The notes beneath the pieces are model-generated. The model saw only the letters and a list, made by a program, of their open reading frames with translations. It was not told the DNA's origin and did not search any database. The position numbers were made by a program, and so were the translations under genes. From a virus (Duplodnaviria > Heunggongvirae > Uroviricota > Caudoviricetes), in the IMG/VR virus record IMGVR_UViG_2667527818_000004: 4,703 bases of DNA. The stretch is one strand, 5' to 3'. Each line of letters opens with the position of its first letter. The first letter of the stretch is position 1. This document shows positions 1 through 4,703 of this stretch, in pieces.

Positions 1-6
1 TAAGAC

Positions 7-26
7 TATCACTTATTTAAGTGATA
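7..26. promoter_or_regulatory. Dyad-symmetric candidate operator upstream of the first plus-strand gene
   Basis: Perfect 9-bp inverted repeat TATCACTTA (7-15) / TAAGTGATA (18-26) with a 2-bp spacer. Nearby are a weak -35-like TTGTCT (31-36) and an SD-like GGGAGG (66-71). Upstream context is cut off by the window edge, and the site could instead lie inside coding sequence if the 616-aa gene starts upstream. Confidence 0.3.
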
Positions 27-70
27 TTGGTTGTCTGGAGATTCAGGGGGCCAGTCTATTAGCGTGGGAG

Positions 71-1921
71 GTGCTCCTCTTCTTGGTACTGATGGCACTC
101 CAGTTAATGGCCAAAGCAGCTGATAATGCAGACTGGAAGGCCCGCTGGGGTAGCGTCCATCACACAGACCGTACGTTGTTAGCACATTATCGCGCGTCGT
201 TGAAAAGCGCCATTCAGCGCAAGGCTAATATCACTCAAGCCATCTCCCGCTATGAGAAATTATTGAACCGTACTCAGAAGGCCGCGACGGATATCAAACG
301 CCTGCGCCCGCTGGTGGAGGATGCAATAAATAAAGGCATTCTGGATGTTGATCCTGATCTGGTTAACCATGCGAATGAGTTCCTTGTTATCGGCGATCGC
401 TCATGGCGTGTAGGCCAATACTACGATTGTGCCGGTGATATCGTTCGCATTAAGTCGCTGGACTTCGACAGCCAGCGCGCAGACGTGGAGATCATCTTTA
501 CCTTCAAAGGTACCAAATCGGGTAACTGGGATGTGAAGACGCTGGATAAACAGGTTGATGTAATTCCCGATGAAGATGCTGTTATGCAGAAAATCAGTGG
601 TGGCGTCTCCATCGCCGGGATTAACGACATCATTTCCTGTGACGATTTCTACCGTTTCCAGCAGCGCGGCATGATCAAAATCACTGACTCATACGGCGTT
701 CAGACTACAGAGTCAGGCTATAGCATCGATTTTGTTGGTACCTATACGGACCCACTGAAGCATGCGGTTTACCCGGATCGCCGTGACGGCGCGCTGAAGT
801 CGTCAATTGCAAAATGGGTGCTTGGTATGATGTCGGAAGGGAATAACCGCCAGATCCGTTCGGCAGAAACATTCCTGGTTGAACTGTTTGGCTCCAATTA
901 TGGCGATGTAATCGCGTCATACGGAGATACGCTATCCCCTGAAGCAATTCAGGAGAAAATAGCGGATGCGATCGCCAGAATGCCGGAAAAAACAAGCCAG
1001 GGGGCTACTCGTAACGGGGATTCTGAACTTGAAGTCACCAATGCCATTTTCGGTACCAATGAGTTCCGGGCGTCAGATTATGAGATCACCACAGCACAGT
1101 TTGGCACCATTGGCATTTACAGCAATAAAGACGAGATCAAACAGTCAATGGACGCTGCAAGCGCGCGCATTGCAGCAGAACGCAAAGCCAATCTGAATCA
1201 TGCAGTTTCCGCGCTGACTCAATCGTGGGTAACAGCAATCAGGGAGGCCGCCACCACAGGAAAAATCACACCGGCAATTGCGGATGTCGTAAACGACGGC
1301 TCTAAATTTATGGATGCCTATAAAATGGATGCGGTGCAGTTGCCATCAGCCTATGGTCAACTCAGCTATCGCATGACCTACAACCTGGTATCAATGTTTT
1401 CCGACCTTGCCATCCTTGGGCTGGTGGATCTTAACGAGGTTACGCCGGAATTGCTCAGCATGCGCAAGAATCATGTGGAGATATTGCAGAGAATTAACAC
1501 GGTTCTTGCCGGGCGCACCGATGAAGAGAAACAGGCCGACGCTGATCGGATAAACCTGGCCCTTGGCAACATCACGGAGGAAGAGATTGCCGCCAGAAAC
1601 GAGAAACAAGAAGAGTTATCATCAATACAGGGTGATGCCACCAGCATAGCTCAGTCTCTTGGTCTGAATTATCGCGTATCCACCGCCGACCTGAAGATGA
1701 TGTTCGCACCAAAATTCGCCGCTGGCGAGGTATTTGGGCTTCAGGAAGCCTCAGGCATGAAAGGCGTTCTTTTCCGTGCGAAAGACGCAATCAAGGCGAA
1801 ATTCGGCGCTCGCTGGCTGCCAGCGAAGGCGAAGAACAGCGATTTCCCGGGTAACTGGTGGATTATCGAGACAAAACACAACGTGGCGGACGTTCTGGCC
1901 GTCATCCAACAATACGCATAA
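71..1921 (+). CDS. Hypothetical protein, 616 aa, function unknown; first gene of a probable three-gene plus-strand operon
   Basis: Long uninterrupted ORF ending at TAA 1919-1921, about 50-52% GC. The frame is open back to the window edge (no stop in positions 2-70), so the true start is ambiguous: GTG 71 overlaps an SD-like GGGAGG (66-71), and TTG 83 or ATG 89 are alternatives, or the gene may begin upstream of the window. No Walker A (P-loop) motif found by eye. Hydrophobic N-terminal segment LLFLVLMALQLMA. Confidence 0.7.
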   Translation: MLLFLVLMALQLMAKAADNADWKARWGSVHHTDRTLLAHYRASLKSAIQRKANITQAISRYEKLLNRTQKAATDIKRLRPLVEDAINKGILDVDPDLVNHANEFLVIGDRSWRVGQYYDCAGDIVRIKSLDFDSQRADVEIIFTFKGTKSGNWDVKTLDKQVDVIPDEDAVMQKISGGVSIAGINDIISCDDFYRFQQRGMIKITDSYGVQTTESGYSIDFVGTYTDPLKHAVYPDRRDGALKSSIAKWVLGMMSEGNNRQIRSAETFLVELFGSNYGDVIASYGDTLSPEAIQEKIADAIARMPEKTSQGATRNGDSELEVTNAIFGTNEFRASDYEITTAQFGTIGIYSNKDEIKQSMDAASARIAAERKANLNHAVSALTQSWVTAIREAATTGKITPAIADVVNDGSKFMDAYKMDAVQLPSAYGQLSYRMTYNLVSMFSDLAILGLVDLNEVTPELLSMRKNHVEILQRINTVLAGRTDEEKQADADRINLALGNITEEEIAARNEKQEELSSIQGDATSIAQSLGLNYRVSTADLKMMFAPKFAAGEVFGLQEASGMKGVLFRAKDAIKAKFGARWLPAKAKNSDFPGNWWIIETKHNVADVLAVIQQYA

Positions 1922-1927
1922 CAGGAG

Positions 1928-1945
1928 CGCCCGGTTCGCCGGGCG
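1928..1945 (+). promoter_or_regulatory. Intercistronic GC-rich RNA hairpin with UUCG tetraloop between the 616-aa and 146-aa genes
   Basis: cgcccgg (1928-1934) pairs with ccgggcg (1939-1945), giving 7 G:C pairs around the loop ttcg (1935-1938), plus a possible G1927:U1946 wobble. AGGAG (1923-1927) lies immediately 5' of the stem and the ATG (1955) 9 nt 3' of it. No U-tract follows, so it is not a classic intrinsic terminator. Confidence 0.4.
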
Positions 1946-1954
1946 TCGCATAAT

Positions 1955-2395
1955 ATGGCCACACTATCTGATACAATAAAACCGAATAAAACATATCTTG
2001 AGGCGGTACTCCGTACAGCGTTGTTAGGAAAGACAGAAGACGAATACGTTGATTTCTTCCTGTCAGGGCTACGCGGGCGATTACTGAAAAATCCCCGCCT
2101 GTACCGCAGCTATGGTCCATACTGGTCGGAAATTAAAAAATTATTACTGGAGCGCGGTTATGGTAATTTCGGTCGTCTCGTTGACCGTGACGTTCGCAAA
2201 ATTTACCGTTATGACCGCCCGGCGCTAACACTCATAGCCGCGACGCTCTACAGCCAGGAGCGTTTTGATAATGGTCAGATATACTCAGCCTGGCATTTAC
2301 TGCCAGTGCCTGAAGAGGTTGACGACCAGGACTATGAGTTTGAGTCTTACGATTTGGAAGTTGAAGCCTTGGCACAGGCTGGAGAGAAAACTTGA
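1955..2395 (+). CDS. Hypothetical protein, 146 aa, with acidic C-terminal tail; function unknown
   Basis: ATG at 1955 lies 33 nt after the upstream stop. The ORF has the same GC content as, and sits in tandem with, the 616-aa gene. The C-terminus is rich in D/E (EEVDDQDYEFESYDLEVE). Stop TGA 2393-2395 overlaps the start of the next ORF. No canonical SD directly upstream; an AGGAG at 1923-1927 is separated from the ATG by a hairpin. Confidence 0.6.
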   Translation: MATLSDTIKPNKTYLEAVLRTALLGKTEDEYVDFFLSGLRGRLLKNPRLYRSYGPYWSEIKKLLLERGYGNFGRLVDRDVRKIYRYDRPALTLIAATLYSQERFDNGQIYSAWHLLPVPEEVDDQDYEFESYDLEVEALAQAGEKT

Positions 2396-2640
2396 AAAAG
2401 CGATACTACACAGTAAAGCATGGGACGCTACGAGCATTACAAGAGTTTGCTGACAAGCATAACGTTGAGGTGCGCAGGGAAGGGGGAAGTAAAGCTCTGC
2501 GCATGTACCGTCCGGACGGAAAATGGCGGACGGTCGTCGATTTCAAAACTAACAGCGTTCCCCAGGGCGTCCGCGACCGGGCATTCGAGGAATGGGAGCA
2601 GATCATCATAGATAACGCATTGCTCCTGAATGCTGATTAA
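2392..2640 (+). CDS. Hypothetical small basic protein, 82 aa (TTG start); weak motif-level resemblance to HicA/YcfA-like small RNA-binding proteins, unverified
   Basis: TTG 2392-2394 overlaps the TGA stop of the upstream ORF (TTGA), suggesting translational coupling. SD-like GGAGAG at 2381-2386 sits 5 nt upstream of the TTG. Stop TAA 2638-2640 is followed 5 nt later by a hairpin. The alternative first in-frame ATG (about 2500) would give only 46 aa. The HicA-like resemblance (GGSKAL...RPDGKWRTVV...VPQGV) is recalled from memory and lacks the usual His residues. Confidence 0.5.
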   Translation: MKKRYYTVKHGTLRALQEFADKHNVEVRREGGSKALRMYRPDGKWRTVVDFKTNSVPQGVRDRAFEEWEQIIIDNALLLNAD

Positions 2641-2644
2641 GAAC

Positions 2645-2673
2645 TCTCCGGCCTAGGGAGATTAGGCCGGAGA
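2645..2673. terminator. Probable bidirectional transcription terminator hairpin between convergent operons
   Basis: Perfect 11-bp inverted repeat tctccggccta (2645-2655) / taggccggaga (2663-2673) with a 7-nt loop gggagat. It lies 5 nt after the plus-strand stop (2640) and 8 nt before the minus-strand gene end (2682). There is no clean U-tract on the plus strand; the minus-strand transcript would continue as GUUCUUAAUC (partial U-tract). Confidence 0.5.
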
Positions 2674-2681
2674 TAAATATA

Positions 2682-3986
2682 CTATATAAACTTAGATATA
2701 ATATCGTGAATCTGTTGTAGCGGGATTTCTTCCATCTTACTCTTAATAAGAGAGCGGTTAGATGCTGTCAGTGAAGGCCATTTTGTTTTCCAGGCTAGAT
2801 ATGCTCGCCATGAGTAGCCTGTTTCGTAAGGTTTATTCATATAAGTCATTGAGTGTTCAACCGCATGTATGTATTTTTTCTCAAAGTTGGTTCCTTTTAC
2901 TTCAAATAAACTACCGAAATAAATAAGCCATTTTGCCAGGTGTTCATACTGCTCCCATGCGCTAGACTCTTTAGTAAGATCTATTTTTTTATCTATTATA
3001 TCACAAAAAACATTTAATACCTTTTCATCATTCCAGCTATATCCAGATGATGAAATGGAGGAAATGATATGATAAAAAGAATCCTCTAACTTCAAGAACT
3101 CTATTTTATACTCTCTTCCGTTTTTTATTACCGATTTGATTGAGTGCCTCAATTTGTCTTTTATTTTTTTTGCTTCTGGAATTTTCTTGTTAAGTTTTCT
3201 AAAGAAATCAGACACCTCTGTTTTATCTATAACCCTAATCCCAAAGCAGGAAAAATAGTAATCTTTAATAGGTTGCAATAGTTTCCCTCGGGAAATAAGG
3301 AAAATATTGGAGGACATTACGTTGTCCCGTGAAAATACCTTATATTCATTTATAATCGCCTTGAGGTTCGCGTCACTTAGAGAATAGCCAAGAATAACAA
3401 TAGTGTTTTCATGTAGAACTGTGCTTAGTTTATTTGAAAAGTAAGAATTACCATTTATAAATCTGAAATAATCCTCGCTAGTAACAACCATATCTGATGG
3501 GGAGTCTATAGAGCCGTGAACATGGTAGACTTTAACCTCACAATTATATTTTGGAATTGGCAGGCCGGGGGTGATTGTACACGTTCGATTCTCTCCAGCC
3601 AGTTTTTCTGCTAACTTGTCATAATTTGTCGTAATTACTTTAAATGTGTTTTCTTTGAAAAAGTCTTGAATATATTCAATTGATGGATCAAGTTCGATTG
3701 AGGCTATGATTTTCTCAATCTCCTGGTAAATATTTTTCCCCGAAAGTATAAATTTTAGTGCAATAACCTGAGCAGCCTCTTCAAGGCTAAGGTCTTTTGC
3801 TTTTCCATCAGGAAATAATTCCTCTTTGAGTGAGTCACCATCCTTCAATAAACCGCACAGTTGCTCCAATAAAGATTGCCAACTTGGGGCTTTATCATCA
3901 GAAACAGCCTTTGAAAATCCAGTGCCTGTAAGAAAGCACAGCCTATGTGTAGCTGCTGCATAGGCAATTTCTATATACTCGCTCAT
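2682..3986 (-). CDS. SIR2-like (sirtuin/DHS-like NAD-binding) domain protein, 434 aa; ThsA-type SIR2 N-terminal domain plus an uncharacterised C-terminal domain; candidate NADase anti-phage effector
   Basis: ATG at 3986-3984 (minus) is preceded by GGAG (plus 3993-3996) with a 6-nt spacer. Stop TAG at 2684-2682. Motifs read from the translation: FLTGTGFS (residues 18-25, glycine-rich NAD-binding loop), VITTNYDKL (residues 117-125, N121) and VYHVHGSID (residues 153-161, H155/H157), followed by IVILGYSLSDANL. These match the order and spacing of SIR2_2-type defence sirtuins as I recall them for ThsA. The gene is about 30% GC against about 50% in the flanks. Confidence 0.8.
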   Translation of the reverse strand: MSEYIEIAYAAATHRLCFLTGTGFSKAVSDDKAPSWQSLLEQLCGLLKDGDSLKEELFPDGKAKDLSLEEAAQVIALKFILSGKNIYQEIEKIIASIELDPSIEYIQDFFKENTFKVITTNYDKLAEKLAGENRTCTITPGLPIPKYNCEVKVYHVHGSIDSPSDMVVTSEDYFRFINGNSYFSNKLSTVLHENTIVILGYSLSDANLKAIINEYKVFSRDNVMSSNIFLISRGKLLQPIKDYYFSCFGIRVIDKTEVSDFFRKLNKKIPEAKKIKDKLRHSIKSVIKNGREYKIEFLKLEDSFYHIISSISSSGYSWNDEKVLNVFCDIIDKKIDLTKESSAWEQYEHLAKWLIYFGSLFEVKGTNFEKKYIHAVEHSMTYMNKPYETGYSWRAYLAWKTKWPSLTASNRSLIKSKMEEIPLQQIHDIISKFI

Positions 3987-4042: not shown

Positions 4043-4684
4043 TTATAGATAATTTCCTTTTCCTGTTAATACTCCCTTAGGCACCTGTTTTTGTGCCAGC
4101 GTTTGGGTTCCGCGAATTATGTTAATCAGAGGGCTTAGTAACGATGGTTCCTGGCGTGCCTCAACTTCTCCAGCCATTGCCCTGATGTAGTCTGCGCTGG
4201 CAACGTTGTTGTATTCCGTCGCAAAGCAACATAGTAACGTCAGAACATGCTCTGTCGTTATTTCGCTCCAGTTGATGTTGAAAAATTCATCGCCTTTTTT
4301 GTCGTGTTCGGAATCGAAGATGCTTTGGTGGAGGATGTATTTGCCGGATTCTTTGCGCGGTAACTTGATCGCTTTCTGGCGTTCCAATTCCTTGTAAATC
4401 TGCATTGCTTCAATCAGTACCGGCCTGCCGTTCATAAAGGGATCTCGCAACCTTACACGCTGGCCAACTCGACCAGTAATAAAGCTGTTTTCCTCTTCCA
4501 CCAGCACGATAAAACCCTTTTCCTCTTTTTCTCGCAATTCGCGCAGCAGCTGGAGTTCCATGTCGCGGCGGCGTTCAGGGTAGCTGGTCCGCTCAGCCAT
4601 TATCAGCTCATTGTTGATCCATGCAGCAGTCATTGACGCCGGTTTGCCGACGCTCATTGAAACAACGCATATTTTCTTATCCAT
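4043..4684 (-). CDS. Hypothetical protein, about 214-217 aa, function unknown; encoded immediately upstream of and co-oriented with the SIR2-like gene
   Basis: ORF on the minus strand with stop TAA (plus 4043-4045). Likely ATG start at 4684-4682 giving MDKKICVV...; the ORF track's TTG at 4696 is an alternative, and the frame stays open to the window edge at 4703, so a 5' extension cannot be excluded. About 49% GC. Predicted beta-alpha-beta N-terminus (KICVVSMSV ... GFIVLVEEE). No P-loop, and no TIR or HEPN motif that I can support. Confidence 0.65.
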   Translation of the reverse strand: MDKKICVVSMSVGKPASMTAAWINNELIMAERTSYPERRRDMELQLLRELREKEEKGFIVLVEEENSFITGRVGQRVRLRDPFMNGRPVLIEAMQIYKELERQKAIKLPRKESGKYILHQSIFDSEHDKKGDEFFNINWSEITTEHVLTLLCCFATEYNNVASADYIRAMAGEVEARQEPSLLSPLINIIRGTQTLAQKQVPKGVLTGKGNYL

Positions 4685-4703
4685 AGCGCCCCACAAAAAA
4701 GAA

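Follow-up and report, generated by a model that had tools for sequence, protein, structure and literature searches.

The closest described relatives of the two small genes studied here are lxc and ulx of bacteriophage P1. Lxc ("lowers expression of c1", formerly Bof) is a corepressor of the P1 immunity repressor C1 (PMC8546580; PMC8198154). [quoted passage not shown] It lowers c1 expression via autoregulation and counteracts the antirepressor Coi. Coi-driven dissociation of the Lxc-C1-operator complex is blocked by Lxc (PMC8546580 and PMC8198154, citing Schaefer & Hays 1990; Velleman 1990, 1992), and overexpression of Lxc from a plasmid leads to a higher lysogeny frequency (PMC8546580, citing Velleman 1990/1992 and Schaefer & Hays 1990; PMC8198154). 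In E. coli, Lxc has also been overexpressed by IPTG induction from a plasmid, and the cells served for infection and lysogeny assays (PMC8546580). Ulx was found by mass spectrometry in purified P1 virions, and its tabulated role is "aids DarB localization" (PMC9024508). The protein belongs to a set of six Dar proteins packaged in the head; together with DarB and DdrB, it is needed against the type I restriction systems EcoB and EcoK (PMC12810830 and PMC12707154, citing Piya 2017). Ulx travels in the phage head and is needed for the incorporation of DarB and for the protection of incoming DNA from EcoB and EcoK. Both ulx and lxc were non-essential for lytic growth in a CRISPRi survey (PMC10695390).

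The window analyzed in this study is the whole 4,703-nt stretch of DNA in IMG/VR record IMGVR_UViG_2667527818_000004. In its ORF listing, an ORF with an ATG start at 1955..2395 (+ strand) encodes 146 amino acids and an ORF with a TTG start at 2392..2640 (+ strand) encodes 82 amino acids. By BLASTP, the 82-aa protein was identical to P1 Lxc (GenBank AAQ13983.1) at 82 of 82 residues over the full length (E = 2e-63). The 146-aa protein was identical to P1 Ulx (GenBank AAQ13984.1; OlxA in P7), a component of the Dar anti-restriction system, at 143 of 146 residues. In PHROGs, the longer protein belonged to phrog_1629, "Ulx-like anti-restriction" (5.6e-65), and the shorter one to phrog_2160 (7.8e-57). 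The 801-bp region around the pair was 97.6-99.2% identical to P1, P7, SJ46, RCS47 and others, and the phage records name these ORFs ulx (olxA in P7) and lxc, downstream of darB. When the window was compared with complete E. coli genomes by megablast, the 100% match was plasmid pF719-2. Matches of 98-100% came from many plasmids of 93-117 kb, annotated with an N-6 DNA methylase/helicase, three hypothetical proteins and a SIR2 protein. The pair is almost certainly ulx-lxc of bacteriophage P1, the end of a darB-ulx-lxc string that an E. coli plasmid carries on a segment derived from P1. These two genes had been described before in P1, and the locus is an ordinary one.

The initial annotation had reported that the stop of the longer ORF and the start of the shorter one overlap, with a Shine-Dalgarno sequence 5 nt upstream, and the ORF coordinates and the sequence bear this out. 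The four bases TTGA at 2392-2395 contain both the TTG start and the TGA stop, two bases being common to both, and the junction of the window reads GCTGGAGAGAAAAC-TTGA. The Shine-Dalgarno sequence of lxc, GGAGAG at 2381-2386 (+ strand), lies within the final ulx codons with a 5-nt spacer to the TTG. It was kept in 79 of the 80 P1-like loci of IMG/VR, where the junction has the form GGAGA(G/T)AAAACTTGA. Relative to P1, lxc had nine synonymous and no non-synonymous differences, a pattern that points to purifying selection on lxc; ulx had six synonymous differences and three non-synonymous ones. We also found more divergent P1-like elements, in Enterobacter and E. coli, in which Ulx is about 50% identical and an ORF of 83-87 aa stands directly after ulx. 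Its product is remotely homologous to Lxc, at 21-27% identity and pairwise E values of 1e-5 and 2e-4. One divergent junction, ATGCTTAATG, has an ATG start and an 8-nt overlap; another, GTGGGTGATG, has a GTG start; and the third, TAATG, has an ATG start and a 1-nt overlap. Judged by these comparisons, ulx and lxc are real genes and not chance ORFs, because the change relative to P1 is mostly synonymous, the junction is kept in nearly all loci and the stop and start overlap or abut in the divergent elements as well.

The initial annotation had taken TTG as the start of lxc and had mentioned an internal ATG at about 2500. This in-frame ATG is at 2503 and corresponds to codon 38 (Met38). The P1 and P7 records give the same CDS boundaries as in the window, with TTG as the start of lxc, and the TTG start is reportedly established since 1990. 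In the 20-member alignment of the Lxc family, residues T12, L16 and A20 were invariant. As all three precede Met38, translation from the internal ATG only would remove conserved structure. The TTG start is thus backed both by the P1 annotation and by the retention of these N-terminal residues in homologues of only 21-27% identity.

The overlap is kept whether the start is ATG, GTG or TTG, which fits a possible translational coupling of lxc to ulx. On a long darB-ulx transcript, ribosomes that finish ulx could re-initiate at the TTG of lxc. The P1 record also annotates three sigma-70 promoters for lxc, whose positions we took from the features of AF234172 with an offset of 1101. P3lxc at 1998..2024 (+ strand) differs from P1 by three substitutions in the window, including one within the -10 hexamer. 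P2lxc at 2141..2169 (+ strand) and P1lxc at 2319..2347 (+ strand) are identical to P1, the latter lying 45 nt upstream of the TTG. A simple consensus promoter scan of the window did not recover these annotated promoters. Since they are annotated inside ulx, lxc should be expressible without translation of ulx, for example in a lysogen. Transcripts from the internal promoters would carry no ribosomes translating ulx, and lxc has its own Shine-Dalgarno sequence; coupling is therefore possible on read-through from darB and is not required.

The family of Lxc is narrow. A first search for homologues returned almost solely near-identical or frameshifted copies, and the divergent members were gathered from the neighbours of divergent Ulx homologues and by a profile search. 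With phmmer against 1.84 billion representative proteins, 13 proteins were found at E<=1e-3, and the credible ones were all Lxc-like; there was no HicA-like protein among them. The matches outside P1-like elements were long repetitive proteins and were discarded as probably spurious. The Lxc profile search found 33 proteins, all on contigs of ~80-140 kb typical of P1-like phage-plasmids, in Escherichia, Salmonella, Citrobacter, Enterobacter and Pantoea. As all credible homologues are P1-like, we consider Lxc to be a family specific to the P1 group. Some database entries named "modulator protein" (P0009 and P0014) switch in the middle of lxc into a +1-frame ORF, 2420-2611, and then back; by their sequences, these proteins evidently come from frameshifted lxc alleles, or from errors of sequencing, in other plasmids of E. 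coli.

Upstream of the pair, an intact darB was not found. An IS3-family insertion sequence, whose end occupies the first bases of the window, 1..103 (no strand assigned), has truncated darB, and matches to other P1-like records begin at base 105. In pF719-2, 34 nt separate the end of an IS3 family transposase gene from the window, and the annotation calls the darB remnant from base 104 onwards "helicase, missing N-terminus". The remnant at 104..1921 (+ strand) consists of the last ~605 codons of this anti-restriction methyltransferase/helicase gene. It is collinear with the end of P1 darB, is likewise incomplete in pF719-2 and matched phrog_21007 and phrog_1685 (E=0 to 8e-264). Because of the IS-darB junction, the GTG start at 71 in the ORF listing is an artefact. 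The spacer between darB and ulx contains AGGAG (1923-1927) followed by a GC-rich hairpin (1927-1946), together spanning 1923..1946 on the + strand. Directly before the ulx ATG there was no Shine-Dalgarno sequence, and folding of the predicted hairpin could bring AGGAG nearer to this ATG. The hairpin has eight G-C-rich pairs and an MFE of -18.1 kcal/mol, with a z-score of -1.4 that is not significant against shuffled sequences. The length of this spacer was not conserved in the divergent P1-like elements.

Downstream, the homology to P1 and P7 breaks off at 2640, precisely at the end of the lxc stop codon, and a 41-nt spacer comes next. The spacer holds a perfect hairpin with a 12-bp stem at 2645..2673 (no strand assigned; -22.2 kcal/mol, z-score -5.0) between the convergent lxc and SIR2 genes, which the terminator scan rated terminator-like on the - strand. 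This hairpin belongs to the inserted cassette and is absent from P1 and P7. The SIR2-domain gene at 2682..3986 (- strand) encodes 434 aa, has 35% GC and stands in place of P1 mod/res (RD-1). Its product matched PF13289 SIR2_2 (1.4e-23) and, in PADLOC, the candidate PDC-S25 (9e-24) as well as ThsA-like SIR2 models; it is ThsA-like solely in the SIR2 domain. P1 has the layout lxc-mod-res-mat; in the window, the segment 2641-4042 has this single gene replacing the type III restriction-modification genes mod and res. The maturation control gene mat follows at 4043..4696 (- strand). It is near-identical to and collinear with residues 34-250 of P1 Mat, the 5' end annotated in P1 falling outside the window. 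The SIR2 arrangement occurred in ~62 of 5426 complete E. coli genomes. Among the 80 P1-like loci of IMG/VR, at least 20 different sequences stood directly after the lxc stop (13 loci of the SIR2 type and nine of the P1 mod type). As so many sequences begin at this point, the lxc stop forms the sharp boundary of a cargo hot spot. The variable region RD-1, flanked by mat and lxc, has already been published (PMC10865808), and res-mod has been described as a low-GC hot spot (PMC6906374).

The initial annotation had read the two ORFs as reminiscent of a toxin-antitoxin pair, had seen a weak resemblance of the basic protein to HicA/YcfA-like small RNA-binding proteins, and had remarked that the characteristic His residues were missing. 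The missing His was confirmed; the resemblance to HicA found no sequence or profile match. Neither Ulx nor Lxc matched any model in Pfam (E<=1 for Lxc), NCBIfam or PADLOC. HicA_toxin (PF07927) was not matched by any of the 20 members of the Lxc family at a Pfam E<=10, and the search of PDB sequences with the Lxc family profile retrieved no HicA at E<=10; the same kind of search with the Ulx profile retrieved no relative. We aligned the Lxc family alignment by hhalign with nine HicA sequences, one from hicA of E. coli K-12 and eight from plasmids. The probability was 0.5% (E 0.11). The invariant catalytic His23 of E. coli HicA, which belongs to the G-x-x-H motif after the first strand, aligned with Ala35 of Lxc, and the Lxc family alignment had no invariant His.

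For the structural comparison, the single-sequence AlphaFold model of Lxc was too low in confidence (pLDDT 61.5), and the model based on the 20-sequence alignment was used instead (pLDDT 85.3, pTM 0.75). In this model, a helix at 13-21 is followed by strands at 26-30, 35-39 and 45-47 and a helix at 65-81. Foldseek found nothing at E<=0.001 in the PDB for the Lxc model. The same was true of BFVD at E<=0.001, where oddly the model did not match Lxc itself. Among the weak PDB matches, the HicA-family structure 1whz ranked second (E 0.30, TM 0.29/0.33) and 5yrz_B had an E of 1.3; the weak BFVD matches included HicA-named proteins with E of 0.09-0.39 and TM of 0.40-0.49. HicA-named structures recurred among the weak matches in all three structure libraries. 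These recurring matches fit the very common small alpha/beta topology of the model and do not demonstrate homology. Our searches thus found neither a solved structure nor a significant structural relative of Lxc.

The charges of the two proteins had also been taken as a sign of partnership. The last 31 residues of Ulx contain 11 D/E and one K/R (pI 4.05), and Lxc has a pI of 9.62. Over its whole length, Ulx is only mildly acidic (pI 5.13), with residues 1-115 being basic (pI 9.6). In the C-terminal part of Ulx, residues 112-146 (window 2288-2392), Y127, S131, D133, E135 and E137 were invariant in homologues down to 47% identity. These invariant positions suggest that the acidic tail is a peptide motif with a function, possibly in targeting to the capsid or in binding of DarB. 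Homologues of Ulx are labelled "peptide-binding protein" at NCBI.

Could the two genes nevertheless act together? One reading is a type II toxin-antitoxin pair in which Lxc is a HicA-like RNA-binding toxin that the acidic 146-aa protein neutralises. The two-gene layout with its stop/start overlap would suit such a pair, and the predicted order of elements in Lxc, helix/three strands/helix, is that of HicA. Against it stand the empty Pfam, NCBIfam and PADLOC searches for both proteins, the failure of every family member (0 of 20) to match HicA_toxin even at E<=10, the hhalign probability given above, the replacement of the catalytic His by Ala35 with no conserved His elsewhere in the family, and the lack of a HicB-type antitoxin beside lxc, whose neighbour is Ulx. 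In addition, strong toxicity is made less likely by the use of Lxc-overexpressing E. coli in assays of infection and lysogeny (PMC8546580), and both proteins have other documented functions. With the genes being P1 ulx and lxc, each with its own described role, and with no toxin-antitoxin model matched, we regard this reading as extremely improbable. It is quite unlikely, if somewhat less so, that Lxc is a very remote, catalytically dead derivative of a HicA/dsRBD-like protein that was recruited as a corepressor; a separate idea with a similarly small chance is that the overlap might couple the dose of the corepressor to late Dar expression. A functional link of another kind would have Ulx bind or titrate Lxc, or would have obligatory coupling tie the corepressor dose to the late expression of the Dar genes. 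Its attraction is that the adjacency of ulx and lxc, with overlapping or abutting stop and start, is kept across P1-like lineages although Lxc has fallen to 21-27% identity, that the junction is nearly invariant (79/80 IMG/VR loci), and that Ulx has a conserved acidic motif at its C-terminus while Lxc is basic. The published phenotypes of Ulx and Lxc are separate, though, and no experiment joins the two (PMC8546580, PMC9024508). In Thermus phages, Ulx homologues follow DarB-like genes and Lxc is not mentioned (PMC11437467). The lxc promoters of the P1 annotation lie inside ulx, and the conserved synteny could be mere common descent, as all Lxc homologues were found on P1-like contigs. We therefore give such a link little credence. 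A regulator-effector pair had been suggested as well. Lxc, the small basic one of the two, does act as a regulator, but a pair in which one protein acts on the other is not supported, and their roles in P1 are separate (PMC9024508, PMC12810830, PMC8546580). Since Ulx is a virion-borne anti-restriction protein and Lxc controls lysogeny, the two are neighbours rather than partners. The arrangement in Thermus phages fits the view that Ulx is functionally tied to DarB and not to Lxc.

With the pair taken as P1 ulx and lxc, the remaining question concerns their state in this replicon. In pF719-2, c1, cre, mat, lxc and phd/doc are intact, fragments of ant are kept and ref is frameshifted. The annotation of the plasmid has a "phage repressor protein C1" at 65972-66823. 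The plasmid is an IS-rich mosaic with insertions of cellulose-synthase and DMSO-reductase genes, and the 50 kb that we inspected contained no phage structural genes. The phage is degraded in this replicon, and the classical P1 functions may therefore not all operate here. With darB interrupted by an insertion sequence, Ulx is probably no longer functional in this replicon; its identity as Ulx is not affected. It is conceivable, but rather doubtful, that ulx and lxc are both inert relics of a decayed P1 prophage. The truncation of darB by an IS3-family element, the frameshift in ref, the IS-rich mosaic structure of the plasmid and the lack of structural genes in the inspected regions would all agree with it. 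However, both ORFs are intact, Lxc has no amino-acid change from P1, and the plasmid carries an intact c1, so C1-Lxc immunity could persist. From the 100% identity with pF719-2, Lxc would still have its c1 partner on the same plasmid. Relic status is likely confined to Ulx.

The locus itself matters little, as P1 lxc/bof has been named and studied since 1990 and ulx since 2017, and the proteins here are identical or nearly so. The useful outcome is a negative one: the locus should not be entered as a toxin-antitoxin candidate. Compared with HicA toxins (PF07927; PDB 5YRZ, 1WHZ), Lxc is alike in being a small basic protein with a predicted helix/three strands/helix order. It differs in having no sequence or profile similarity, no significant structural match, no catalytic His and no HicB-type partner; HicA cleaves RNA, whereas the known activity of Lxc is corepression through protein and DNA. 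Compared with P1 Ulx, the copy in the window shares 98% identity across all 146 residues and, as in P1, comes immediately after darB, but it carries S58P, I83F and Q101H, and its partner darB is truncated by an insertion sequence. Compared with P1 Lxc (Bof), the copy in the window has the same 82-aa sequence, the same TTG start, the same overlap with the ulx stop and the same place at the edge of the mat-lxc variable region; it differs by nine synonymous nucleotides and by its downstream neighbour, which is the SIR2 gene instead of mod/res.
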